A DNA stretch of 64,000 nucleotides from Escherichia coli (GCF_013315695.1 NZ_CP054353.1); one strand, 5' to 3'. Counted from the first letter of the stretch, positions 1 through 59,135 are shown. Made by a program: numbers and translations. Notes: generated from the sequence alone by a model not told the origin.

Positions 1-1372
1 CCGGCACAACCGATCCGCCAAAAAGAGGCGTACCAATGTCGATATAGTCCCCCGCGCGGACAATCACTTCGTCAATGACTGCCAACGGGAGTTGTTGTAG
101 CTGTGGGCGCAACAACATGCCCAGAGCTTTACCAAAGTCCTGCCCGGCCACCACCAGCAGGGGATGCGGATTCGGAAAACGCGCGACGAAATCGACCAAC
201 GCGTTGATGACCGTCAGTACCGCGGCGTAACGCACAGGCAGCGAGGCGGGAAGCGCCAGCACGTACGCGTCAGTTTTAGGATCAAGATCCAGCTGAATCA
301 GCGCCTGTTGCCAGGCACTCACCAGATCCGTTTCATCAATCGGGATCGCCACCGGCAAATTGCGCAGCGGCAGTTGTACGCCCTCCAGCCAGATTGTGCT
401 GCCAGAGAGCGAAAGGGTATGAGCTCCCGCGCCAATCACCGTGGCGCGCACGGTTTGCGCCGGAAACTGCACGTTCATCTCACGCAGGCGCGGATGGTCA
501 TGCAGCGCCGTTGCCAGAAGCGGGCCAATATCGGCAAAACAGAACGGGTCGGCGGGCTGGTGGCGATAACATTCGCCAACGCCGCCAGAAAGCGTAATGA
601 TTTCGGGCGTAACACCTACGGGCAGCAAACCGGTTTGCATCAATGCCTGCGCGAGCGGCGAAAGCGTTCCGTCAATCACTTCGACAATCAGCTCTGCCAT
701 CCGCCGGGTAACCTGCACCAGCTGCGCGCCAGTCAGCGAACGGGCGTCGGTGCCTGCACCGAAGCACTCATCCACAATCATCTGCCCCGGTTTATGAGCG
801 TAAACCACGCGCCCCTGGCTGTCGGTTTCCAGCAGGCGACCGCCGACATTGAGGCAGGCGGTGCCGCTGATTTTTCCGGCATCGAACAGGGCGTAGTTCG
901 CGGTGCCACCGCCGATGTCGATATTCAGTACCCGACACAGCCGTTGTTCAGAAAGGGTTTGCGCCCCGGCACCGTGACCGGCGATCACGGATTCGAGATG
1001 CGGCCCGGCGCTGGCGACGACAAAATCGCCCAGCGACTGGGAGAGCGTCATCACCGCCGGGCGAGCGTTGCGGGTTTTCGCGCTTTCACCGGTGATAATG
1101 ATGGCACCAGAATCAACGCTTTCCGGCGCAATGCCCGCAGCCTGATATTGCTCGAGGATTAAGGTTTTCAGTTCCGCTTCTTTTAAACCACCCTGTTTAT
1201 CGACAGGGGTAAAGAACACCGGGCTTTGCCAGCTAATTTCGCGTTTGATGAATTCGTAGCGCGGCACCTGCGACACCGCCGCACGGTTAACCAGCTCCAG
1301 GTGGGAGAAGATCACCTGGGTGGTGGTGGTGCCGATATCGATACCGACGCTCAGTAGCTGGCGAGTGTTCAC
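1..1372 (-). CDS. eutA: Ethanolamine ammonia-lyase reactivase EutA, 3' end cut by window start
   Basis: Minus-strand translation from GTG at 1370-1372 gives MNTRQLLSVGIDIGTTT..., recognised as the EutA N-terminus; start overlaps the eutH stop (GTGA); the + strand ORF 164..1162 is its antisense artefact. Confidence 0.85.
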   Translation of the reverse strand, partial: MNTRQLLSVGIDIGTTTTQVIFSHLELVNRAAVSQVPRYEFIKREISWQSPVFFTPVDKQGGLKEAELKTLILEQYQAAGIAPESVDSGAIIITGESAKTRNARPAVMTLSQSLGDFVVASAGPHLESVIAGHGAGAQTLSEQRLCRVLNIDIGGGTANYALFDAGKISGTACLNVGGRLLETDSQGRVVYAHKPGQMIVDECFGAGTDARSLTGAQLVQVTRRMAELIVEVIDGTLSPLAQALMQTGLLPVGVTPEIITLSGGVGECYRHQPADPFCFADIGPLLATALHDHPRLREMNVQFPAQTVRATVIGAGAHTLSLSGSTIWLEGVQLPLRNLPVAIPIDETDLVSAWQQALIQLDLDPKTDAYVLALPASLPVRYAAVLTVINALVDFVARFPNPHPLLVVAGQDFGKALGMLLRPQLQQLPLAVIDEVIVRAGDYIDIGTPLFGGSVVP

Positions 1373-4735: not shown

Positions 4736-6139
4736 TTAAACAATGCGAAACGCATCGACTAATACACAGCGACGCAGACGGACAAACGTCCGCGCGCTGG
4801 TTACCCCTTCACCGGTTGGCGTGGTGATGGTCATGGTGGTCCAGCCTTCCCCGCCCAGCCCCAGCCCGGCAATGCACGGTCCGTTCTTAACGAAAATGCT
4901 GGTATCAATGGCATTCGCCATCTGGTTCATGTTCTCGATATTGCGCGAGTGCATTGCCGCCGTGTGGTGGCAACCGCCTTCCAGTTTCACCGCCAGCGCA
5001 ATGGCATCCGCCACGTTGGCGACGCGCACGACGGGCAGCACCGGCATCATCAGTTCAGTCACAGCAAACGGATGTTCTGCGGTGGTTTCTACAAACAGCA
5101 GTCGCGTTTGTTCCGGAACTTTAAGGCCGATTGCCGCCGCGATTTTCGCCGCATCGCGACCAACCCAGTCACGGCTGACGGTGCCTTTTCCGCGCTCGTC
5201 GATATTTTTCAGCAACACCGGTTGCAGCTGCTGCGCCTGCTCTGCGGTCAGTTTCACCGCGTGCTGGCCTTCCATCAGACGCATCAGTTCATCGGCTACG
5301 CTATCCACAACAATCAGTACCTTTTCGTCGGCACAAATGATGTTGTTATCGAAAGACGCGCCTTTGACGATGGACTGAGCAGCACGGGCGAGGTCGGCGG
5401 TTTCATCCACCACTACCGGCGGGTTGCCAGCGCCTGCGGCAATCAGACGTTTATTGGTGTGTTTACGCGCCGCTTCTACTACCGCTTCGCCGCCGGTCAC
5501 CACCAGCAGGCCGATGCCCGGAAACTTGAACAAACGTTGAGCGGTTTCGATATCCGGATTTGCCACAGTAACCAGTAAGTTTTCCGGCCCGCCTGCGGCA
5601 ACAATCGCCTGGTTGAGCAGCGTGATCGCCCGCTGGGAGACTTTTTTCGCCGCCGGATGCGGGGCAAAAATGACGCTGTTGCCCGCGGCAATCAGGCTGA
5701 TGGCGTTGTTAATTACGGTTGCCGCCGGGTTAGTGGAAGGCGTCACCGAAGCCACTACGCCCCAGGGCGCGTTTTCAATTAAAGTCAGGCCGTTGTCACC
5801 GGTCAGCACTTGCGGAGAGAGGCACTCAACGCCTGGTGTGCCGCGCGCCTGAGCGACGTTTTTGGCAAATTTATCTTCAACGCGCCCCATGCCGGTTTCA
5901 CTGACGGCAAGTTCCGCTAAATCTCTGGCGTGTTTTTCGCCTGCTTCACGAATGGCAGCAATGGCTAACTGGCGCATTGCCACGCTTTTTAACCCTTGCT
6001 GGGCGACTTTGGCTGCCGCAACGGCGTCATCCAGGGACGCGAAAACGCCCATCTCATGAACGGCGGCGGGCGGCGTGTCACTGCTTTGCATTTTCAGCAG
6101 TACCGCTTTCACCACCTGTTCAATATCCTGTTGATTCAT
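4736..6139 (-). CDS. eutE: Acetaldehyde dehydrogenase (CoA-acylating) EutE
   Basis: 467-aa aldehyde dehydrogenase family ORF; operon position. Confidence 0.9.
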   Translation of the reverse strand: MNQQDIEQVVKAVLLKMQSSDTPPAAVHEMGVFASLDDAVAAAKVAQQGLKSVAMRQLAIAAIREAGEKHARDLAELAVSETGMGRVEDKFAKNVAQARGTPGVECLSPQVLTGDNGLTLIENAPWGVVASVTPSTNPAATVINNAISLIAAGNSVIFAPHPAAKKVSQRAITLLNQAIVAAGGPENLLVTVANPDIETAQRLFKFPGIGLLVVTGGEAVVEAARKHTNKRLIAAGAGNPPVVVDETADLARAAQSIVKGASFDNNIICADEKVLIVVDSVADELMRLMEGQHAVKLTAEQAQQLQPVLLKNIDERGKGTVSRDWVGRDAAKIAAAIGLKVPEQTRLLFVETTAEHPFAVTELMMPVLPVVRVANVADAIALAVKLEGGCHHTAAMHSRNIENMNQMANAIDTSIFVKNGPCIAGLGLGGEGWTTMTITTPTGEGVTSARTFVRLRRCVLVDAFRIV

Positions 6140-8693: not shown

Positions 8694-9391
8694 AGGGATT
8701 GCCAGTTAGCCGGCCAGGCGACATACAGGAATTTCACACTGGATGTCGTACCAAATTCGATGCTGGAGCCTTTCGGGATAAACATCACATCGCCTGCTTT
8801 GGCGATCATGGTTTCGCCTTCGTGGCGAACGTGCAGTTCCCCTTCCAGTACCATATCGATTTCGTCATAGTTGAGGGTCCACGGGAAGAAGGCGTTCTCC
8901 CACTGCATAAAACCGGCGGCCATGCTGCTGCCGTCGTCTCCGGTGACCAGATCCGTTAATCCGACGCAGTGTGGCTGTGCGCCGTCGAAACGACCAAACT
9001 TGACGCTGCTGCCATCAATCACTTTGATGCCGCCTTTGCCGGTCACCGATTTGAAGCTCGGCTGCATTGCACCCTGCTCCAGTGACTGTTTTTCCTTCAT
9101 CACTTTTTCCATCAGCTGCGCGACCAGGCTTTCGGTAAACTGGCCTTCCGGTAGCTGGGCGATGATGGTTTCGCGGATGCGCTGGCTTTCGGTTTTATCG
9201 GCTGGCACGCTGGCGGGAACGGACGTCGTTACCGCAGTCGATTCATCACATTCGGTGATGGTAAAACCCAACAGATCAGCCACTTCACGAGCTTCCGGGG
9301 TAATAATGCTGGCGCGCAGAACCACGGACATTGCCAGTTCGCCGCGCGCGTGTGCTTCACGAATATCATTCGCTGTGATGAGTTTTTTCAC
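8690..9391 (-). CDS. eutQ: EutQ (cupin-fold protein of the eut operon)
   Basis: 233-aa ORF, operon position, recognised sequence. Confidence 0.88.
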   Translation of the reverse strand: MKKLITANDIREAHARGELAMSVVLRASIITPEAREVADLLGFTITECDESTAVTTSVPASVPADKTESQRIRETIIAQLPEGQFTESLVAQLMEKVMKEKQSLEQGAMQPSFKSVTGKGGIKVIDGSSVKFGRFDGAQPHCVGLTDLVTGDDGSSMAAGFMQWENAFFPWTLNYDEIDMVLEGELHVRHEGETMIAKAGDVMFIPKGSSIEFGTTSSVKFLYVAWPANWQSL

Positions 9392-9874: not shown

Positions 9875-9883
9875 CACAAAGCG
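9875..9883. repeat. Left copy of 9-bp target-site duplication CACAAAGCG flanking IS1
   Basis: Identical 9-mer immediately outside both IS1 termini. Confidence 0.9.
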
Positions 9884-9898
9884 GGTAATGACTCCAAC

Positions 9899-10402
9899 TT
9901 ATTGATAGTGTTTTATGTTCAGATAATGCCCGATGACTTTGTCATGCAGCTCCACCGATTTTGAGAACGACAGCGACTTCCGTCCCAGCCGTGCCAGGTG
10001 CTGCCTCAGATTCAGGTTATGCCGCTCAATTCGCTGCGTATATCGCTTGCTGATTACGTGCAGCTTTCCCTTCAGGCGGGATTCATACAGCGGCCAGCCA
10101 TCCGTCATCCATATCACCACGTCAAAGGGTGACAGCAGGCTCATAAGACGCCCCAGCGTCGCCATAGTGCGTTCACCGAATACGTGCGCAACAACCGTCT
10201 TCCGGAGCCTGTCATACGCGTAAAACAGCCAGCGCTGGCGCGATTTAGCCCCGACATAGCCCCACTGTTCGTCCATTTCCGCGCAGACGATGACGTCACT
10301 GCCCGGCTGTATGCGCGAGGTTACCGACTGCGGCCTGAGTTTTTTAAGTGACGTAAAATCGTGTTGAGGCCAACGCCCATAATGCGGGCTGTTGCCCGGC
10401 AT
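9899..10402 (-). CDS. insB: IS1 transposase InsB reading frame (made as InsAB' fusion by -1 frameshift)
   Basis: 167-aa ORF ...[65 protein letters not shown]; A6C slippery run (minus strand, plus-strand T-run 10340-10345) in the insA/insB overlap. Confidence 0.93.
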
Positions 10403-10596
10403 CCAACGCCATTCATGGCCATATCAATGATTTTCTGGTGCGTACCGGGTTGAGAAGCGGTGTAAGTGAACTGCAGTTGCCATGTTTTACGGCAGTGAGA
10501 GCAGAGATAGCGCTGATGTCCGGCGGTGCTTTTGCCGTTACGCACCACCCCGTCAGTAGCTGAACAGGAGGGACAGCTGATAGAAACAGAAGCCAC
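10321..10596 (-). CDS. insA: IS1 InsA (transposition inhibitor / DNA-binding protein)
   Basis: 91-aa [46 protein letters not shown]... Confidence 0.95.
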
Positions 10597-10646
10597 TGGA
10601 GCACCTCAAAAACACCATCATACACTAAATCAGTAAGTTGGCAGCA

Positions 10647-10970
10647 TCACCCACAAAGCGTATAATTTAATAAGCGTCCTAAACCACTGACGGTTTGTGA
10701 TAACGCTTCTTCTACTGCGCCCACCGAGCCATAAATCACCAGCGCGCCGCTAAAACGGTCGAGAAAACCGATATGCACATCGGCGGCTTTCAACGCTAAA
10801 TCACCGGCGATCATCGCCGTTTCTCCGGGAGTTAGCGTCATAATGCCAATTGCGCCCGCATCCGGAACGCCGATTTTCTTCGCCAGTTCCTCGCCGGGAT
10901 GCGCGATGAGATGCGCCAGTGTGACCTGTTTACCGGGCACAAATTCCTGAATGATGCGTTCTTTATCCAT
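10647..10970 (-). CDS. eutS: Microcompartment shell protein EutS, 3' end altered by IS1 (ends ...NYTLCG; stop lies inside IS1)
   Basis: Starts [15 protein letters not shown]...; reading frame runs into the IS1 right end; deleting IS1 plus one TSD copy restores ...LCEMTKS followed by TAA (rc of 9858-9860). Confidence 0.85.
10652..10660. repeat. Right copy of 9-bp target-site duplication CACAAAGCG flanking IS1
   Basis: Identical to 9875-9883. Confidence 0.9.
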
Positions 10971-11335: not shown

Positions 11336-12406
11336 ATGAAAATTCACTACCTTGTCACCACTCTCGAAACGGGAGGCGCTGAATTTGCGATTCCTGATAT
11401 TGTGACTACTCTACAAGATCTTGGTCATGAGGTGAAAATTTATGTATGTGAACCCCGAGATATGGGCGCGGCACCGCGTCTGAAAGCGGCCGGTTTATCC
11501 TGGTGTTTATTATCAAATCGGCGGCGTTCTGTTCCAGTGCTTGTCGGTGCTTATCTGGCAAAAATCATTTACGACAAACCCGATCTCATCTGGACTTCGT
11601 TAAGTTGGGGGACGCGTATTGGACAATGGGGCGGCCGACTTATGGGCATTCCGGTTATCAGTTTTAAACATAGCGCCAGCGTAAAACCAGCAACCTGGCG
11701 TATGCGCAGCATGTCACGTTTATGGATTGGCGATTCTGCAACCGTAACTCAATACCTGCATGAAACCATGCGGATCCCGAAGCAACAAGTGATGTGCTGG
11801 CCTTTTTTTCAGGCTAATCCGCAAGCTGCTCAAGCGAAAAAGTGGGACGGGGTATCAGTTTTACAATTAGGCACCGTTGGTCGCCTGCATGAAGTTAAAA
11901 ATTACGCAGGATTAATTACTGCACTCGCTTCGTTTGTCGATAAAAACCCGCAATTGCGCTCGCGAATCCGACTAACCCTTCTCGGTGAGGGAGCCGAACA
12001 AGAGGTTTTGAAAAAGACCATAACACAACACGCCATGGAGGATGTAGTTTGTTTAGCGGGGTTTTCTGCGGATATCGAAAATTTTCTTGCCGGATTACAT
12101 GTCTATATCCAAACTTCCCGCTACGAAGGGATGTGCCTCGCCGCACACGAAGCCATGAATGCAGGGCTTGCGATCATTACGCCCCCTGTAGGTGAACTTA
12201 AAGAATCGGTAATTGATGGTCATACCGGCTATATACTTAATGGCGAACTAACTCCAGCACTGGAGGAAGTACTTAACCGTATTTTCAATGAACCCACAGA
12301 ATTACAACACTATGGGCAAAATGCGCGTCAGTATGTATTACAGAAATTCAGCCATGAAAATTTTGTCCAGTCTGCAATCAACATTGTTAATAGACTTATT
12401 CACTGA
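11336..12406 (+). CDS. Uncharacterised GT4-family (GT-B fold, Glycos_transf_1-like) glycosyltransferase, 356 aa, in an AT-rich segment
   Basis: N-terminal LETGGAEF...LGHEV motif and C-terminal E-X7-E motif (YEGMCLAAHEAMNAGLAIITPPVGELKESVIDGHTGYIL); about 42% GC over the first 120 nt by manual count; no counterpart in K-12 gene order as recalled. Confidence 0.8.
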   Translation: MKIHYLVTTLETGGAEFAIPDIVTTLQDLGHEVKIYVCEPRDMGAAPRLKAAGLSWCLLSNRRRSVPVLVGAYLAKIIYDKPDLIWTSLSWGTRIGQWGGRLMGIPVISFKHSASVKPATWRMRSMSRLWIGDSATVTQYLHETMRIPKQQVMCWPFFQANPQAAQAKKWDGVSVLQLGTVGRLHEVKNYAGLITALASFVDKNPQLRSRIRLTLLGEGAEQEVLKKTITQHAMEDVVCLAGFSADIENFLAGLHVYIQTSRYEGMCLAAHEAMNAGLAIITPPVGELKESVIDGHTGYILNGELTPALEEVLNRIFNEPTELQHYGQNARQYVLQKFSHENFVQSAINIVNRLIH

Positions 12407-22646: not shown

Positions 22647-24347
22647 GTGATTGTTAAACGACCCGTCTCGGCCAGTCTGGCCCGGGCCTTTTTTTACATT
22701 GTGCTGCTGTCGATTCTTTCCACGGGTATCGCTCTGCTAACGCTGGCGAGCAGTTTACGCGACGCTGAGGCTATCAATATTGCCGGATCGCTGCGTATGC
22801 AGAGTTACCGCCTGGGCTACGACTTGCAAAGTGGCAGTCCACAACTCAATGCACATCGCCAGTTATTTCAGCAGGCACTGCATTCACCGGTATTAACCAA
22901 TCTCAACGTCTGGTATGTGCCAGAGGCAGTAAAAACCCGCTATGCGCATCTGAATGCCAACTGGCTGGAGATGAATAATCGGCTCAGCAAGGGCGATTTG
23001 CCGTGGTATCAGGCCAATATTAATAATTATGTTAATCAGATAGACCTGTTCGTGCTGGCTTTACAGCACTACGCTGAACGCAAAATGCTGCTGGTGGTGG
23101 CGATTTCCCTGGCTGGCGGCATCGGTATTTTCACGCTGGTCTTTTTTACTTTGCGCCGCATACGCCATCAGGTGGTTGCCCCGCTGAATCAGCTGGTTAC
23201 CGCCAGTCAGCGTATTGAACACGGGCAGTTCGACTCGCCGCCGCTGGATACCAGCCTGCCGAATGAGCTTGGCCTGCTTGCAAAAACCTTTAACCAGATG
23301 TCGAGCGAGCTGCATAAATTGTACCGTTCGCTGGAGGCGTCAGTAGAAGAAAAGACCCGCGATCTCCACGAGGCCAAGCGTCGTCTGGAGGTGTTGTATC
23401 AGTGTTCGCAGGCGCTAAACACCAGCCAGATTGATGTGCATTGTTTCCGCCATATTTTGCAGATTGTTCGCGACAATGAAGCGGCTGAATATCTGGAGTT
23501 AAATGTTGGTGACAACTGGCGGATTAGCGAAGGGCAGCCAAACCCGGAATTGCCGATGCAGATTTTACCGGTGACAATGCAAGAGACGGTTTACGGCGAA
23601 CTGCACTGGCAAAATAGTCACGTTTCATCATCAGAACCGCTGCTTAACAGCGTTTCGTCGATGCTGGGACGCGGTTTGTACTTTAATCAGGCGCAGAAGC
23701 ATTTTCAGCAGTTATTGTTGATGGAAGAACGTGCGACCATCGCCCGCGAATTGCACGACTCGCTGGCTCAGGTACTTTCTTACTTACGTATCCAGTTGAC
23801 GTTACTGAAGCGTTCGATACCGGAAGATAATGCCACCGCACAAAGTATCATGGCCGATTTTTCCCAGGCGTTGAATGATGCTTATCGGCAGTTACGCGAG
23901 CTGTTAACTACTTTCCGCCTGACGCTGCAGCAGGCGGATCTCCCCTCCGCGTTGAGGGAAATGCTGGATACGTTACAAAATCAAACCAGCGCCAAACTGA
24001 CCCTCGACTGCCGTCTGCCAACCCTGGCGCTGGATGCGCAAATGCAGGTGCATTTGTTGCAAATTATTCGCGAAGCGGTGCTGAATGCGATGAAGCACGC
24101 CAACGCCAGCGAAATCGCCGTTAGCTGCGTCACCGCGCCGGATGGCAATCACACAGTCTATATTCGCGACAACGGAATTGGCATCGGTGAACCGAAAGAA
24201 CCCGAAGGCCATTATGGTCTGAATATCATGCGCGAACGCGCGGAAAGATTGGGTGGGACGCTGACTTTTTCGCAACCTTCCGGCGGCGGCACGTTAGTGA
24301 GTATTAGCTTTCGCTCTGCGGAGGGTGAGGAAAGTCAGCTGATGTAA
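22647..24347 (+). CDS. narQ: Nitrate/nitrite sensor histidine kinase NarQ
   Basis: 566-aa product from GTG 22647 (MIVKRPVSASLARAFFYIVLL...), HAMP plus HisKA_3/HATPase architecture. Confidence 0.92.
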   Translation: MIVKRPVSASLARAFFYIVLLSILSTGIALLTLASSLRDAEAINIAGSLRMQSYRLGYDLQSGSPQLNAHRQLFQQALHSPVLTNLNVWYVPEAVKTRYAHLNANWLEMNNRLSKGDLPWYQANINNYVNQIDLFVLALQHYAERKMLLVVAISLAGGIGIFTLVFFTLRRIRHQVVAPLNQLVTASQRIEHGQFDSPPLDTSLPNELGLLAKTFNQMSSELHKLYRSLEASVEEKTRDLHEAKRRLEVLYQCSQALNTSQIDVHCFRHILQIVRDNEAAEYLELNVGDNWRISEGQPNPELPMQILPVTMQETVYGELHWQNSHVSSSEPLLNSVSSMLGRGLYFNQAQKHFQQLLLMEERATIARELHDSLAQVLSYLRIQLTLLKRSIPEDNATAQSIMADFSQALNDAYRQLRELLTTFRLTLQQADLPSALREMLDTLQNQTSAKLTLDCRLPTLALDAQMQVHLLQIIREAVLNAMKHANASEIAVSCVTAPDGNHTVYIRDNGIGIGEPKEPEGHYGLNIMRERAERLGGTLTFSQPSGGGTLVSISFRSAEGEESQLM

Positions 24348-36792: not shown

Positions 36793-37365
36793 TTGACACT
36801 GTCATCGCAACATTATCTGGTGATCACTGCGTTGGGTGCCGATCGCCCTGGAATAGTGAACACCATCACCCGTCATGTCAGTAGTTGCGGCTGTAATATT
36901 GAAGACAGTCGCCTGGCGATGCTGGGAGAAGAGTTCACGTTTATCATGCTGCTTTCCGGTTCATGGAATGCCATTACTCTGATTGAATCAACGTTACCGT
37001 TGAAAGGTGCCGAACTGGATCTTTTAATCGTGATGAAGCGCACGACGGCGCGTCCGCGTCCGCCAATGCCAGCATCTGTCTGGGTTCAGGTCGATGTGGC
37101 AGACTCCCCGCATTTAATTGAACGCTTCACAGCACTTTTCGACGCGCATCATATGAACATTGCGGAACTGGTGTCACGCACGCAACCTGCTGAAAATGAA
37201 CGGGCTGCGCAGTTGCATATTCAGATTACTGCCCACAGCCCCGCATCTGCGGACGCAGCAAATATTGAGCAAGCGTTCAAAGCCCTATGTACAGAACTCA
37301 ATGCACAAGGCAGTATTAACGTCGTCAATTATTCCCAACATGATGAACAGGATGGAGTTAAGTAA
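36793..37365 (+). CDS. gcvR: Glycine cleavage system transcriptional repressor GcvR (TTG start)
   Basis: 190-aa product (M)TLSSQHYLVITALGADRPGIV... begins at TTG 36793; ACT-domain pair. Confidence 0.85.
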   Translation: MTLSSQHYLVITALGADRPGIVNTITRHVSSCGCNIEDSRLAMLGEEFTFIMLLSGSWNAITLIESTLPLKGAELDLLIVMKRTTARPRPPMPASVWVQVDVADSPHLIERFTALFDAHHMNIAELVSRTQPAENERAAQLHIQITAHSPASADAANIEQAFKALCTELNAQGSINVVNYSQHDEQDGVK

Positions 37366-43148: not shown

Positions 43149-43799
43149 ATGACCGGTTCTATGATCGTAAATAATCTGGCGGGACTGATGATGCTGACAT
43201 CGCTGTTTGTGATTAGCGTCAAAAGCTATCGCCTGTCATGCGGATTTTACGCCTGCCAGTCGCTGGTGCTGGTGTCTATTTTCGCCACTCTCTCGTGTCT
43301 GTTCGTCGCAGAGCAACTGCTGATCTGGTCCGCCAGCGCCTTTATCACCAAAGTGCTGCTGGTACCGTTAATCATGATTTACGCTGCACGAAATATTCCC
43401 CAGAACATCCCGGAAAAAGCGTTATTCGGTCCGGCAATGATGGCATTGCTCGCGGCATTAATTGTCCTGCTTTGCGCATTTGTCGTTCAGTCCGTGAAGC
43501 TACCGATGGCTACCGGGCTGAAACCGGCGCTGGCGGTGGCGTTAGGTCATTTTCTGCTTGGCCTGCTGTGCATTGTCAGCCAGCGCAATATCCTGCGGCA
43601 AATTTTTGGTTACTGCCTGATGGAAAACGGCTCCCATCTGGTGCTGGCGCTTCTAGCCTGGCGTGCACCGGAACTGGTGGAAATTGGTATCGCTACCGAC
43701 GCCATCTTCGCCGTCATTGTGATGGTGTTACTGGCAAGAAAAATATGGCGTACCCACGGCACGCTGGACGTGAACAACTTGACCGCGCTGAAGGGATAA
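43149..43799 (+). CDS. hyfE: Hydrogenase-4 membrane subunit E
   Basis: 216-aa hydrophobic ORF. Confidence 0.9.
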
Positions 43800-43803
43800 T
43801 GAG

Positions 43804-45384
43804 ATGAGTTATTCTGTGATGTTCGCTTTACTCCTGCTCACGCCGCTGCTTTTTTCGCTGCTCTGTTTTGCCTGCCGGAAACGGGGGCACTCTCCGACTC
43901 GCGCGGTGACAGTATTACATAGCTTAGGGATCACACTGCTGCTGATTCTGGCACTCTGGGTGGTCCAAACTGCCGCTGATGCGGGAGAAATATTCGCTGC
44001 GGGACTGTGGCTTCATATTGATGGTCTGGGCGGTTTGTTCCTCGCCATTCTTGGTGTGATTGGCTTTCTCACCGGTGTTTACTCGATTGGCTACATGCGT
44101 CATAAAGTGGAGCACGGCGAGCTTTCACCCGTTACGCTGTGCGATTACTACGGTTTCTTCCATCTGTTTTTGTTCACCATGCTGCTGGTTGTTACCAGCA
44201 ATAACCTGATTGTGATGTGGGCGGCGATCGAAGCCACCACCTTAAGCTCGGCGTTTCTGGTAGGCATTTACGGTCAGCGTTCATCGCTGGAAGCTGCATG
44301 GAAGTACATCATTATTTGTACTGTTGGTGTCGCTTTTGGTCTGTTCGGTACCGTGCTGGTATACGCCAACGCCGCCAGCGTTATGCCGCAGGCAGAAATG
44401 GCGATATTCTGGAGCGAGGTTCTTAAGCAATCGTCCTTGCTTGACCCAACATTAATGCTGTTGGCCTTTGTGTTTGTGCTAATTGGCTTTGGCACTAAAA
44501 CCGGGCTATTCCCCATGCACGCCTGGCTGCCAGATGCTCACAGTGAAGCGCCGAGTCCGGTCAGCGCCCTGCTCTCCGCCGTATTGCTGAACTGCGCGCT
44601 GTTGGTGCTTATTCGCTATTACATCATTATTTGCCAGGCCATCGGCAGCGATTTCCCCAACCGGTTGTTGCTCATCTTCGGCATGTTGTCGGTTGCCGTG
44701 GCGGCATTTTTCATTCTGGTACAGCGGGACATTAAGCGTCTGCTGGCGTACTCCAGCGTGGAGAACATGGGACTGGTCGCGGTGGCGCTAGGCATTGGCG
44801 GGCCGCTGGGAATTTTTGCTGCGCTGCTGCACACCTTAAACCACAGTCTGGCAAAAACGCTGCTGTTCTGCGGTTCCGGCAATGTACTGCTCAAGTACGG
44901 CACGCGCGATCTCAACGTCGTCTGCGGAATGCTCAAAATCATGCCATTTACCGCCGTGCTGTTTGGCGGCGGTGCGCTGGCGCTGGCCGGGATGCCGCCC
45001 TTCAACATTTTTCTTAGCGAATTTATGACCGTTACCGCCGGACTGGCGCGTAATCACCTGCTGATTATCGTCCTGCTGTTATTGCTGTTAACGCTGGTGC
45101 TGGCGGGCCTGGTACGGATGGCTGCGCGGGTGTTAATGGCGAAACCGCCGCAGGCCGTTAACCGGGGTGAACTTGGCTGGTTGACCACCTCGCCAATGGT
45201 GATTCTGCTGGTCATGATGCTGGCGATGGGAACGCATATTCCACAACCTGTCATCAGGATCCTGGCGGGCGCTTCCACTATAGTCCTCTCAGGGACGCAC
45301 GACCTGCCTGCACAACGTAGCACCTGGCATGATTTTTTGCCTTCAGGCACCGCATCTGTTTCGGAGAAACACAGTGAACGTTAA
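43804..45384 (+). CDS. hyfF: Hydrogenase-4 membrane subunit F (antiporter-like)
   Basis: 526-aa polytopic ORF. Confidence 0.92.
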
Positions 45385-47089
45385 TTCATCGTCAAATCGT
45401 GGCGAAGCGATTCTCGCCGCCCTGAAAACGCAGTTCCCCGGCGCGGTGCTGGATGAAGAGCGACAAACGCCTGAACAGGTCACCATTACGGTGAAAATAA
45501 ATCTGCTGCCTGACGTTGTACATTATCTTTATTATCAACATGATGGCTGGCTTCCGGTCCTGTTTGGCAACGACGAGCGGACACTTAACGGTCATTACGC
45601 GGTTTATTATGCCCTTTCAATGGAAGGGGCCGAAAAATGCTGGATCGTGGTGAAGGCACTGGTCGATGCCGACAGTCGGGAGTTTCCGTCAGTCACACCG
45701 CGCGTCCCTGCCGCGGTCTGGGGCGAGCGAGAAATTCGCGATATGTACGGGTTGATTCCGGTTGGCCTGCCGGATCAGCGTCGGCTGGTGTTGCCCGATG
45801 ACTGGCCGGAAGATATGCATCCGCTGCGCAAAGACGCGATGGATTATCGACTGCGCCCAGAACCGACGACTGATACCGAAACGTATCCGTTTATCAACGA
45901 GGGCAACAGCGATGCGCGGGTGATCCCTGTCGGCCCGCTGCATATCACCTCCGATGAACCAGGTCACTTCCGCTTGTTTGTGGATGGCGAGCAAATTGTC
46001 GATGCTGATTACCGCCTGTTTTATGTCCATCGCGGCATGGAGAAACTGGCAGAAACGCGGATGGGCTACAACGAAGTGACCTTCTTGTCGGACCGCGTGT
46101 GTGGGATTTGCGGTTTTGCCCACAGTGTGGCCTATACCAACTCGGTTGAAAATGCACTGGGGATTGAGGTGCCGCAACGAGCGCATACTATTCGCTCGAT
46201 TCTGCTGGAAGTCGAACGGCTGCATAGTCATTTGCTCAACCTTGGCCTCTCCTGCCATTTTGTTGGTTTTGATACCGGCTTTATGCAATTTTTCCGCGTG
46301 CGGGAAAAGTCGATGACGATGGCGGAATTGCTGACCGGGTCGCGTAAAACCTACGGTCTGAATCTGATTGGTGGTGTTCGCCGCGATATTCTCAAAGAGC
46401 AACGTCTGCAAACGCTGAAACTGGTGCGCGAGATGCGTGCCGACGTGTCGGAGCTGGTAGAGATGCTGCTTGCCACGCCGAATATGGAACAACGCACTCA
46501 GGGCATTGGCATTCTCGACCGACAAATCGCCCGTGATTATAGCCCCGTAGGGCCGCTGATCCGCGGCAGTGGTTTTGCCCGTGATTTGCGCTTTGATCAC
46601 CCCTACGCCGACTACGGCAATATTCCCAAAACGCTGTTTACCTTTACCGGCGGCGATGTCTTCTCCCGCGTGATGGTCCGTGTCAAAGAGACGTTTGATT
46701 CGCTGGCAATGCTGGAATTTGCCCTCGACAACATGCCGGATACCCCACTGCTGACCGAAGGCTTTAGCTATAAACCTCACGCATTCGCGCTGGGCTTTGT
46801 TGAAGCGCCACGCGGTGAAGACGTGCACTGGAGCATGCTCGGTGATAACCAAAAATTGTTCCGCTGGCGCTGTCGTGCCGCCACCTACGCCAACTGGCCA
46901 GTGCTGCGTTACATGCTGCGCGGCAATACCGTTTCTGACGCACCGCTGATTATCGGTAGCCTTGATCCCTGTTACTCCTGTACCGACCGTGTGACGCTGG
47001 TTGATGTGCGCAAGCGCCAGTCAAAAACCGTGCCGTATAAAGAGATCGAACGCTACGGCATTGATCGTAACCGTTCGCCGCTGAAGTAA
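45374..47089 (+). CDS. hyfG: Hydrogenase-4 [NiFe] large subunit HyfG (HycE-like); start codon uncertain (GTG proposed)
   Basis: N-terminal CxxC (RVCGICG) and C-terminal DPCYSCTDR Ni-binding motifs; GTG 45374 preceded by GGAGA; overlaps hyfF 3' end. Confidence 0.85.
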
Positions 47090-54511: not shown

Positions 54512-54871
54512 ATGACCAAACAGGTAAAAATCTACCATAACCCACGCTGTTCAAAGAGCCGGGAAACGCTGAACCTGCTGAAAGAAAACGGCGTGGAGCC
54601 AGAAGTGGTGCTCTACCTTGAGACACCCGCCGATGCGGCAACGCTGCGCGATTTGCTGAAAATGCTGGGAATGAATAGCGCTCGTGAATTGATGCGCCAG
54701 AAAGAGGATCTTTATAAAGAACTGAACCTGGCTGACAGTTCGCTTAGCGAAGGGGCGCTTATTCAGGCAATGGTGGATAATCCGAAGCTAATGGAGCGCC
54801 CGATTGTGGTCGCGAATGGCAAAGCGCGGATTGGTCGTCCACCGGAGCTGGTACTGGAAATCGTGGGTTAA
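54512..54871 (+). CDS. yfgD: ArsC-family protein YfgD
   Basis: 119-aa ORF MTKQVKIYHNPRCSKSRETL..., arsenate-reductase-like fold. Confidence 0.9.
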   Translation: MTKQVKIYHNPRCSKSRETLNLLKENGVEPEVVLYLETPADAATLRDLLKMLGMNSARELMRQKEDLYKELNLADSSLSEGALIQAMVDNPKLMERPIVVANGKARIGRPPELVLEIVG

Positions 54872-54901
54872 GAAGTGCTCCATCGCTAGTTGAAGCACAT
54901 T

Positions 54902-54935
54902 GCCGGATGCGACGCTTGCCGCGTCTTATCCGGCC
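54902..54935. repeat. REP element between yfgD and hda
   Basis: GCCGGATGCGACGCTTGCCGCGTCTTATCCGGCC. Confidence 0.8.
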
Positions 54936-54976: not shown

Positions 54977-55678
54977 CTACAGTTTCAGAATTTCTTTCAC
55001 AAACGGAATGGTCAGCTTACGTTGCGCGGTAATCGACGCACGATCCAGCTGATCCAGCGTCATAAATAACGTGCGCATTTCTCTGTCGAGCCGCTTCAGC
55101 AAGAAACGCCCCACATCTTCCGGCAGTTCAAAACCACGCAAACGAGCGCGTAACTGTAGCGCCTGCAACTTATCTTCATCAGAAAGTGGCTGCAATTTGT
55201 AGATCTGCCCCCAGTCGAGACGCGACGCGAGATCCGGTAATCCCAGATTCAACTGCCGCGGTGGACGATCGCCGGTGATCAACAACCGTGTTTTACCCGA
55301 TTCCAGAATTCGATTGTAGAGATCGAAAATCGCCATCTCCCACAACTCATCGCCTGCAATACACTCAATGTTGTCGATACAGACCAGCGACAAATGCTCC
55401 ATACCGTCGAGCACTTCCGGAACAAACCAGGTGCGTTTATCCAGCGGGACATAGCCCACCGCATCGCCACGCTGTGACAATTCCGCGCAAGCCGCGTGCA
55501 GCAGATGGCTGCGCCCCGCGCCTTCGCGTGCCCAGAGATAGATGTAACCGCTATGTTCCTGACGCAGCACGTTTTGCAGCGCGGCCAGTAAAGAGGAGTT
55601 ATCCCCCGGCCAGAAACTTGCAAAGGTTTCGTCGTCAGGAAGATAAAGTGGCAAAGAGAGCTGTGCCGGTGTGTTCAG
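54977..55678 (-). CDS. hda: DnaA-inactivating protein Hda (233 aa), CUG start codon
   Basis: Product (M)[18 protein letters not shown]... begins at CTG (rc of 55676-55678) with GAGG SD upstream; the track ORF is extended to an upstream in-frame ATG. Confidence 0.85.
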
Positions 55679-55772
55679 AGATACCTCAACCAGGATTTCA
55701 CAAAATCGCGAGAAGTTTACCACAGAATCCCATGATGTTTGAACCGGGCAGCAACACTGCCCGGTCGGTACA

Positions 55773-57062
55773 TTATTTGTCTGTTATATCCGCGTCTTCT
55801 GCGTCCAGCACCACTTCTTCAGGGCGCAGCACACTAATCAGTTTGAAGACCAAACTTAAGCCGATACCGACGATGGTCGCCAGCGCCATACCTTTCAGCT
55901 CCGCCGCGCCGATGTTTACCTTCGCGCCACTGACGCCGATGATCAAAATCACGGAAGTCAGGATCAGGTTCTGTGCTTTGTTGTAATCCACTTTCGATTC
56001 GATCAAAACACGAATACCGGAAGCACCGATGACACCATAAAGCAGCAGCGAAACGCCGCCCATCACCGGCAATGGGATCATCTGGATAGCAGCAGCCAGT
56101 TTACCGACGCAGGAAAGCAGGATAGCGAAAATCGCCGCCCCGCCGATAACCCAGGTACTGTAAACACGGGTGATCGCCATCACGCCAATGTTTTCCCCGT
56201 AGGTAGTATTTGGCGTGGAGCCAAAGAAGCCGGAGATCACGGTCGACAAGCCGTTAGCAAACATCGAACGGTGCAGACCTGGATCGCGCAGCAGATCTTT
56301 TTTGACGATATTAGCCGTTACTACCAGGTGCCCTACGTGTTCGGCAATAACCACTAACGCCGCTGGCAGAATAGTCAGAATGGCAAACCACTCGAAGCGC
56401 GGCGTATAGAGAGTTGGCAGCGCAAACCAGTGAGCATTAATAATCGGCGTGGTATCGACAATTCCCATTGCGAAAGAGAGCGCGTAGCCCACCAGCACGC
56501 CAATTAAAATCGGGATAATTGCCAGGAAACCACGAAACAGCACGGAACCTAAAACCGTGACCGCCAGGGTGGTAATAGAGATGATGATGGTTTTGGAGTC
56601 TGGCGTTTGCCCTTCAGCCGGGAGTAAACCCGCCATACCGGCAGCTACGCCCGCCAGCTCCAGACCGATGACGGCAACGATTGCGCCCATTGCCGCAGGT
56701 GGAAACAGCACGTCCAGCCAGCCGGTCCCCGCTTTCTTCACGATAAAAGAAACCAGGCAGAACAGCACGCCGCACATAATAAAGCCGCCCAGCGCGACTT
56801 CATACCCTAACGGCAACAGTAACAATACCGGTGAAATAAAGGCAAAGCTGGAACCAAGATAAGCCGGGATTTTCCCTTTACAGATGAAGAGATACAGCAG
56901 CGTTCCTATACCGTTAAATAACAGTACAGTCGCCGGGTTAATATGAAATAAGACGGGCACCAGGACGGTTGCACCAAACATGGCGAACAAATGTTGCAAA
57001 CTAAGCGGGATTGTCTGTAAAAGTGGCGGTCTTTCACTCACCCCGATAGCACGGCGCGTCAT
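55773..57062 (-). CDS. uraA: Uracil:H+ symporter UraA
   Basis: 429-aa product from ATG at 57060-57062 ([36 protein letters not shown]...). Confidence 0.93.

Positions 57063-58080: not shown

Positions 58081-59135
<1,055 letters not shown>

Follow-up and report, generated by a model that had tools for sequence, protein, structure and literature searches.

The hda gene, encoding the DnaA inactivator Hda, is located on the reverse strand of the DNA analyzed here, a 64-kb stretch of Escherichia coli (NZ_CP054353.1) that we refer to as the window. Across all 64 kb, the window shares 99.95% identity with E. coli strain MS 21-1, from which it differs by one 777-bp insertion and three small indels. 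Running from eutA to ppx, it comprises the eut operon, maeB, talA-tktB, narQ, acrD, dapE, purC, dapA, gcvR-bcp, hyfA-R, focB, bepA, arsC (yfgD), hda-uraA-upp, purMN and ppk-ppx. A 3.8-kb query around hda found matches in 5,425 of 5,426 complete E. coli genomes and was 100% identical to MS 21-1, with the gene order arsC, hda, uraA, upp, purM. Hda is an AAA+ protein that, together with the DNA-loaded sliding clamp, stimulates DnaA-ATP hydrolysis (RIDA), as reported for the identical K-12 protein (PMC5397184, PMC5742627).

Start codons across the window

Start sites were assessed against two references: the MS 21-1 RefSeq annotation transferred to window coordinates, with 55 coding sequences starting inside the window, and the curated annotation of K-12 MG1655. 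Shine-Dalgarno strength was expressed as duplex energy with the 3' end of the 16S rRNA, a scale on which -6.0 kcal/mol is reached by 5.5% of random positions. The 55 genes begin with 48 ATG, five GTG, one TTG and one CTG codon, giving 7/55 (12.7%) non-ATG starts. A preliminary description of this DNA had considered such starts to be concentrated here. Seven non-ATG starts in 64 kb might suggest that some regional factor, for example the local composition or genes gained by horizontal transfer, has made the window unusually rich in them. The proportion, however, lies below the ~17% genome average, as E. coli starts genome-wide comprise 83% AUG, 14% GUG and 3% UUG (Hecht et al., bioRxiv 10.1101/063800). 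With this background (0.17), the expected number of non-ATG starts is 9.4, and the binomial probability of observing at least seven is 0.85. The starts are spread evenly without a cluster (1.4, 9.4, 22.6, 36.8, 45.4, 55.7 and 58.1 kb), belong to unrelated operons (eut, narQ, gcvR-bcp, hyf, hda and purMN) and each feature an ordinary Shine-Dalgarno sequence. The idea of a concentration was, therefore, abandoned, and we regard a regional cause as close to inconceivable.

Besides the CTG of hda, the following non-ATG starts are annotated in the window:

1370..1372, reverse strand: GTG start of eutA, overlapping the eutH stop codon (GTGA); 467 aa; annotated; Shine-Dalgarno energy -9.5 kcal/mol
9389..9391, reverse strand: GTG start of eutQ; annotated; first start codon of its ORF; -10.3 kcal/mol
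22647..22649, forward strand: GTG start of narQ; 566 aa; annotated; -6.4 kcal/mol versus +0.4 at a GTG five codons upstream
36793..36795, forward strand: TTG start of gcvR; 190 aa; in RefSeq and K-12; -5.7 kcal/mol versus +0.2 at the upstream TTGs
45374..45376, forward strand: GTG start of hyfG, with an 11-nt overlap with the end of hyfF; 571 aa; annotated; -6.6 kcal/mol versus -1.5 at an ATG 15 codons upstream
58099..58101, forward strand: GTG start of purM; 345 aa; annotated; -5.5 kcal/mol versus -0.2

The positions proposed earlier for gcvR (TTG 36793), narQ (GTG 22647), purM (GTG 58099) and eutA (GTG 1372, reverse strand) all equal the RefSeq and K-12 starts. For hyfG, GTG 45374 had been named as the probable start; it equals the annotated one, and 'probably' stays the right word. 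The GTG of eutQ at 9391 (reverse strand) is a seventh non-ATG start that had been absent from the earlier list. The Shine-Dalgarno backing claimed for the non-AUG starts was likewise recovered, with energies of -5.5 to -10.3 kcal/mol compared to +0.4 to -4.0 kcal/mol at upstream in-frame alternatives. At the eutH/eutA junction, the sequence reads ATCGTGAACA. Start codons and N-termini agree with those of K-12 MG1655, whose hda, gcvR, narQ, purM and eutA products measure 233, 190, 566, 345 and 467 aa; HyfG, at 555 aa in K-12 versus 571 aa in the window, differs in length through an internal indel and not through its start.

Among the ordinary GUG and UUG starts of the window, direct N-terminal evidence was found for purM alone, with N-terminal peptides (M)TDKTSLSYK... 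recorded at NC_000913 2621197-2621199 together with a Ribo-RET entry (TRAINSPOTTER, PMC13245402 supplement). For gcvR, two transcription starts are mapped at K-12 positions 2599806 and 2599878. Transcripts from the latter begin past both upstream TTGs, at a distance of 28 nt from the annotated TTG (2599906); the literature searched contained no account of its UUG start. The evidence for the narQ, eutA, hyfG and eutQ starts consists of concordant annotation and Shine-Dalgarno sequences. With normal Shine-Dalgarno sequences and spacing, the UUG of gcvR and the GUG codons of narQ, purM, eutA, hyfG and eutQ fit the E. coli genes that initiate at GUG (14%) or UUG (3%) and are ordinary Shine-Dalgarno-led near-cognate starts at the usual frequency.

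Longest-ORF calls over-extend 20 of the 55 genes. The over-extension stated in the preliminary description was found for hda (15 codons), gcvR (22), narQ (5), purM (5) and hyfG (15); eutA is not affected, as no start codon precedes the GTG in its ORF. Upstream in-frame ATG codons, which the same description had assumed as the competing starts, exist for hyfG alone (45329), while the other genes have GTG, TTG or nothing upstream.

Start codon, promoter and transcript of hda

The features of the hda start region, all on the reverse strand, are as follows:

54977..55678: coding sequence of hda, DnaA inactivator Hda; 233 codons plus stop; annotated in RefSeq MS 21-1 and K-12
55646..55663: QLSLPL, codons 6-11, taken to be the N-terminal sliding-clamp-binding motif; N-terminal residues constant in 79/80 loci, with synonymous DNA variation
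55676..55678: annotated CTG (CUG) initiation codon; CTG in 80/80 Enterobacteriaceae loci
55683..55687: Shine-Dalgarno sequence GAGGT; 3' end 4 nt before the CTG; present in 80/80 species
55707: transcription start of the hda-only mRNA from SMRT-Cappable-seq; 29-nt leader
55714..55722: extended -10 promoter element TGgTAAACT; TGnTAnACT in 80/80 species; mapped transcription start 7 nt downstream
55721..55723: GTG taken by longest-ORF calls (248-aa form), very probably not the start; overlaps the TG of the extended -10 element; weak Shine-Dalgarno, -4.0 kcal/mol
55738..55743: weak -35-like hexamer TTCAAA with an 18-nt spacer; 4/6 match to TTGACA; putative role
55744..55764: hairpin CCGGGCAG-TGTTG-CTGCCCGG past the uraA stop codon, read directly from the sequence

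The CTG start at 55678 with GAGG upstream and the resulting 233-aa product, as put forward in the preliminary description, match both RefSeq and the curated K-12 annotation. The site combines a near-cognate codon with a Shine-Dalgarno sequence at functional spacing (GAGGT, 4 nt), and its duplex energy of -6.9 kcal/mol is close to the median of the 55 annotated starts (-6.6 kcal/mol). Values for the other in-frame candidates are -4.0 kcal/mol at the upstream GTG, preceded by a weak GGGA match, and -1.7 kcal/mol at a downstream TTG. A 91-nt segment covering the promoter, the Shine-Dalgarno sequence and the CTG is identical in 5,358 of 5,426 E. coli records. The K-12 gene (b2496, NP_416991.2) encodes the identical 233-aa protein from the same CTG, Shine-Dalgarno sequence and transcription start, and its DNA is identical from the promoter through codon 12; the window itself represents another E. 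coli lineage.

This start codon is not new, as it was published in 2008 and had entered the reference annotation by 2014. EcoGene 3.0 gives CTG as the hda start, citing Su'etsugu et al. 2008 for N-terminal evidence (PMC3531124). In initiation profiling by TetRP (Nakahigashi et al. 2016), the hda signal was located at the CTG-based 2014 site; the accompanying table moves the start from 2616843 (2006) to 2616798 (2014), making the gene 45 nt shorter, and hda was not scored 'multiple' on manual inspection (PMC4909307 supplement). Hda was not seen among the entries listed in the TRAINSPOTTER N-terminomics supplement (PMC13245402).

Longest-ORF calling, in agreement with the 2006 K-12 annotation, instead starts at the GTG at 55723, which would yield a 248-aa protein with the CTG as an internal leucine codon. 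The TG of this GTG (55723-55721) is the TG of the extended -10 element. From the -10 motif, transcription was predicted to start at ~55707, and a published coordinate then matched this position exactly: SMRT-Cappable-seq (Yan et al. 2018) lists a monocistronic hda operon (b2496) starting at NC_000913.3 2618805 on the reverse strand (PMC6131387 Supplementary Data 2), which corresponds to window position 55707, a G in a stretch where the K-12 and window sequences are identical. As required for a sigma-70 extended -10 promoter, TGn directly precedes the -10 hexamer and the mapped start follows the hexamer by 7 nt (6-8 nt required), with a predicted role for the TG. Further upstream, the first three bases of the putative -35 hexamer, TTC, are conserved at 90% or above. 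Because the transcript begins 16 nt downstream of the GTG, the hda-only mRNA cannot encode the 248-aa form. The GTG is contained in a read-through upp-uraA-hda transcript listed in the same SMRT-Cappable-seq table (PMC6131387).

Automated scans of 55600-55900 called neither an hda promoter (total 8/12 at a threshold of 9-of-12) nor the uraA-hda hairpin as a terminator; the hairpin has no T run, and its 3' arm, GCCCGG, is conserved at no less than 90%. The 2016 Cappable-seq supplements held no entry near hda. We also considered a structural or riboswitch explanation for the use of CUG. It found no support, as the predicted RNA fold of leader and early coding sequence (55707-55640) was no more stable than that of shuffled sequence (z = 0.51) and an Rfam search of the start region returned nothing above threshold, just sub-threshold REP-like matches.

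At the protein level, the 233-aa form carries the QL[SP]LPL motif of the Hda family at its extreme N-terminus, at residues 6-11. The QLSLPL variant present here is what we take to be the sliding-clamp-binding motif. A clamp-binding site at the N-terminus of Hda has been described (PMC5742627). Distant Hda homologues with 40-63% identity have 2-12 residues before QL[SP]L. The protein scored 476.6 bits against the Hda equivalog NF005982 of NCBIfam (cutoff 268) and 281.4 bits against TIGR03420 (cutoff 194.8), and Hda homologues carry Pfam domains PF00308 and PF22688. On the 248-aa ORF, these alignments cover residues 14-248 and 21-247, respectively, leaving residues 1-13 outside the family models. 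The E. coli Hda that was crystallized (PDB 5X06) consists of a 20-residue tag followed by the 233-aa form, with the Hda part 100% identical; residues 21-253 of chain E correspond to residues 16-248 of the long ORF, M replacing L16.

Conservation of the hda start region

For comparison across species, we sampled one genome per species, which provided 80 Enterobacteriaceae loci encoding Hda with 92-100% identity from genera including Escherichia, Salmonella, Citrobacter, Klebsiella, Enterobacter, Kluyvera, Kosakonia, Leclercia, Raoultella, Buttiauxella, Franconibacter and Shimwellia. All 80 carry a CTG at the position corresponding to 55678-55676, and in each case GAGGT precedes it, with a 4-nt gap in 79 loci and a 5-nt gap in one. 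An in-frame stop is present within 15 codons upstream of the CTG in 60 of the 80 species, and 46/80 lack any in-frame ATG, GTG or TTG in the interval from the upstream stop to the CTG. Where canonical starts occur upstream, their position varies (4, 5, 8, 9, 12, 15, 16 or 24 codons), and a GTG 15 codons upstream, in frame and with no intervening stop, is limited to seven loci (E. coli and a few relatives). On the downstream side, none of codons 2-5 (N, T/A/G, P, A) can serve as a canonical start. The TTG at codon 9 (55654) was rejected: it lacks a Shine-Dalgarno sequence (-1.7 kcal/mol), is TTG in just 43/80 species and would cut the QLSLPL motif. As upstream canonical starts are missing or unconserved, codons 2-5 are unusable, codon 9 is rejected and homologue N-termini are short, the CTG is the sole near-cognate codon placed for the conserved Hda N-terminus.

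The sequence context of the upstream GTG shows a different type of conservation. The TGnTAnACT motif extends to Yersinia and Erwinia with a variable n position, and Proteus has a related motif, TGTTAGAAT. The distance from the -10 motif and GTG to the CTG varies between species from 42 to 48 nt, not in multiples of 3. Because the n position is free and the distance to the CTG variable, TGnTAnACT is a DNA signal rather than a series of codons. A variation profile based on a MAFFT alignment of 83 distinct sequences pointed in the same direction. Downstream of the CTG, variation is codon periodic, with 0.24, 0.08 and 0.59 bits at positions 1, 2 and 3 and zero indels, compared to a flat profile in the 45 nt upstream (0.78, 0.76 and 0.75 bits), which is interrupted by numerous frame-breaking indels. 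Judged from this alignment, coding-type conservation starts at the hda CTG, and the region upstream is non-coding.

These data bear on two alternatives. Translation from the GTG at 55723 would have in its favor the longest ORF, the former K-12 annotation, an exact 248-aa sequence on at least 1000 public contigs, the presence of the GTG on read-through transcripts and its GGGA match. It would, however, need a start codon that lies upstream of the gene's own transcription start, is out of frame or blocked by stops in most other species and opens a region without codon periodicity, and it would add residues that the family models do not cover. TetRP had its hda signal assigned to the CTG and not to the class 'multiple', and EcoGene also gives CTG. 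We consider the 248-aa start very improbable. Alternatively, initiation could be dual, mostly at CUG, with a minor, E. coli-specific extended isoform translated from the GTG on read-through transcripts. A transcript from the upp promoter is on record, the GTG of E. coli and of a small number of relatives (7/80 loci) is in frame with the CTG and not separated from it by a stop, and GUG is intrinsically a far stronger start codon than CUG. Against this, the Shine-Dalgarno sequence at the GTG is weak, manual inspection of the TetRP data did not class hda as 'multiple', and the extension is unconserved, making a functional isoform unlikely; its 15 residues would bury the clamp-binding motif deeper than in any homologue seen. 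Dual initiation thus has only a slim chance of being correct. We conclude, with a probability of roughly 93%, that hda translation begins at the CUG at 55678-55676 and yields a product of 233 aa.

Outside Enterobacteriaceae, Yersinia, Erwinia and Proteus share the same GAGGT-NNNN-CTG-AAY arrangement. Their sequence reads GAG GTG CTT CTG AAY, and the annotated start is the GTG within the Shine-Dalgarno sequence, giving a 235-aa form beginning with 'MLLN...'. No Shine-Dalgarno sequence of its own precedes this GTG, and translation in these genera, too, would more likely start at the conserved CTG, two codons further on.

Hda dosage and annotation of weak starts

Hda is a low-abundance regulator. 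A weak promoter, comprising the putative -35 hexamer TTCAAA, an 18-nt spacer and the extended -10 element TGgTAAACT, would drive an hda-only mRNA from 55707. In its 29-nt leader, which is free of notable structure, the 5-nt Shine-Dalgarno sequence GAGGU would position the CUG across the 4-nt gap, and the initiator tRNA would pair with this codon despite the first-position mismatch. Initiation might then proceed at ~1-2% of the AUG rate, as CUG was found to initiate at 1-2% of AUG in E. coli (bioRxiv 10.1101/063800), and the start codon could serve as an inbuilt brake on Hda abundance. The codon may have been retained through selection for a low Hda dose. As an invariant weak codon that is one base change from AUG, GUG or UUG, it suggests purifying selection against stronger starts. 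We somewhat favor the broader view that CUG with GAGGU is an ancient Enterobacterales feature under strict selection rather than an E. coli oddity, which would imply that selection caps the Hda dose. The hda CUG would then represent hard-wired scarcity of a replication-licensing regulator and, in its family-wide conservation, a neat illustration of how a weak start codon can be under selection.

A second confirmed CTG start in K-12 is that of yfjD, a different gene outside the window, which was predicted from conservation and its ribosome-binding site and confirmed by start-codon mutagenesis (EcoGene 3.0, PMC3531124). The AUU starts of infC and pcnB resemble the hda CUG in being rare, non-canonical and associated with low expression in the 1-2% class (bioRxiv 10.1101/063800). 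They differ in the position of the mismatch, which affects codon position 3 in AUU and position 1 in CUG. A further difference concerns regulation: the infC AUU serves as the sensor of the IF3 autoregulatory loop, whereas we know of no such feedback for hda.

For annotation, the preliminary description had warned that automated pipelines would mis-call the Hda N-terminus. This remains pertinent in that the 248-aa form is still widespread but no longer applies to PGAP, which now calls the CTG. In a collection of 15 billion proteins, at least 1000 contigs carry the exact 233-aa Hda sequence and at least 1000 the exact 248-aa one, and the same 90% cluster also contains variants of 238, 241 and 200 aa. 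When starts are called by longest ORF or in Prodigal style, E. coli Hda gains 15 false residues and its relatives gain 2 to 25, and models, constructs and alignments then have the N-terminal clamp-binding motif in the wrong place. The start matters here purely as a caution and is nothing new in kind. The observation on hda is real, ordinary and already known, and its earlier interpretation was largely right; the breadth of CUG conservation and the identity of the mis-called GTG with the TG of the extended -10 element are refinements that may go slightly beyond common knowledge. If the CUG is indeed an ancient feature, the 235-aa hda annotations in Yersinia, Erwinia and Proteus would be two codons too long. 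As a separate observation, hda of Proteus contains an additional ATG two codons after the CTG.

Start codons of hda and its homologues

The annotated hda start in Yersinia enterocolitica, Erwinia amylovora and Proteus myxofaciens is a GTG that lies within the Shine-Dalgarno sequence (GAGGTG CTT CTG AAY), with the E. coli-type CTG found two codons 3' of it. The P. myxofaciens gene has an additional ATG two codons past the CTG. GTG starts were likewise called for each of three distant Hda homologues (52-63% identity), a tiny sample (n = 3) drawn from metagenome or draft assemblies and annotated by gene callers whose start choices are limited to ATG, GTG or TTG. These three calls hint at a possible general tendency of Hda family genes to begin with weak start codons.

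Positions 601-609 of L086, L087 and L088 (hda loci of Y. enterocolitica, E. amylovora and P. myxofaciens): GTG-CTT-CTG start region of hda
Positions 169-171 of L089, 301-303 of L090 and 301-303 of L091 (loci of the distant homologues): GTG starts

One E. coli Hda database entry (P0001) runs to 258 aa and has a 25-residue stretch repeated in tandem in its interior. A dedicated initiation study named infC and pcnB as the only confirmed non-canonical starts in E. coli (bioRxiv 10.1101/063800). Its list of non-canonical starts includes neither hda nor yfjD, so not every specialist in the field is aware that hda starts at CUG.

Length alleles of hyfG

The hyfG product comprises 571 aa in the window versus 555 aa in K-12, a difference accounted for by a single in-frame segment:

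46538-46585: extra 48-nt segment (16 codons) in hyfG, absent from K-12

Since the direct repeat GCCCGTGATT flanks this segment on both sides, it looks as if K-12 lost these codons of the hydrogenase-4 large subunit gene through an in-frame deletion between the repeats. Among 5,426 complete E. coli genomes, only 2,137 were matched by a 45-nt probe taken from within the segment, and long and short alleles thus both appear to be common in the species.

Insertions and strain differences in the eut and hyf regions

Within the window, eutS is broken up by an IS1 element, while the gene is intact (336 nt) in both MS 21-1 and K-12. The insertion is bordered by a 9-bp target-site duplication, CACAAAGCG, at 9875-9883 and 10652-10660, and encodes an InsA-like ORF of 91 aa, with GTG as the first codon, and an InsB-like ORF of 167 aa. 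Farther along, the spacer between eutS and maeB spans roughly 2 kb, compared with only 292 bp in K-12, and its glycosyltransferase-bearing segment looks like a strain-variable insertion.

9884-10651: IS1 element (768 bp) inside eutS
11336-12406, plus strand: glycosyltransferase family 4 gene between eutS and maeB

Other genes are whole in the window but damaged in the MS 21-1 annotation, where eutE contains an internal stop and hyfE is frameshifted; the window copies encode 467 aa without a stop (4736-6139) and 216 aa (site 43230-43231), respectively. For eutM, the two strains differ by 1 nt near the 3' end (about 6566), and the intact window copy encodes 97 aa, the same length as in K-12.

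A palindromic element separates two convergent genes:

54845-54935: REP-type palindromic element GCCGGATAAGACGCGGCAAGCGTCGCATCCGGC between arsC and hda

It matched the Rfam naRNA4 model in either orientation, but at 33.9 and 26.6 bits both matches fell short of the gathering score (59.5).
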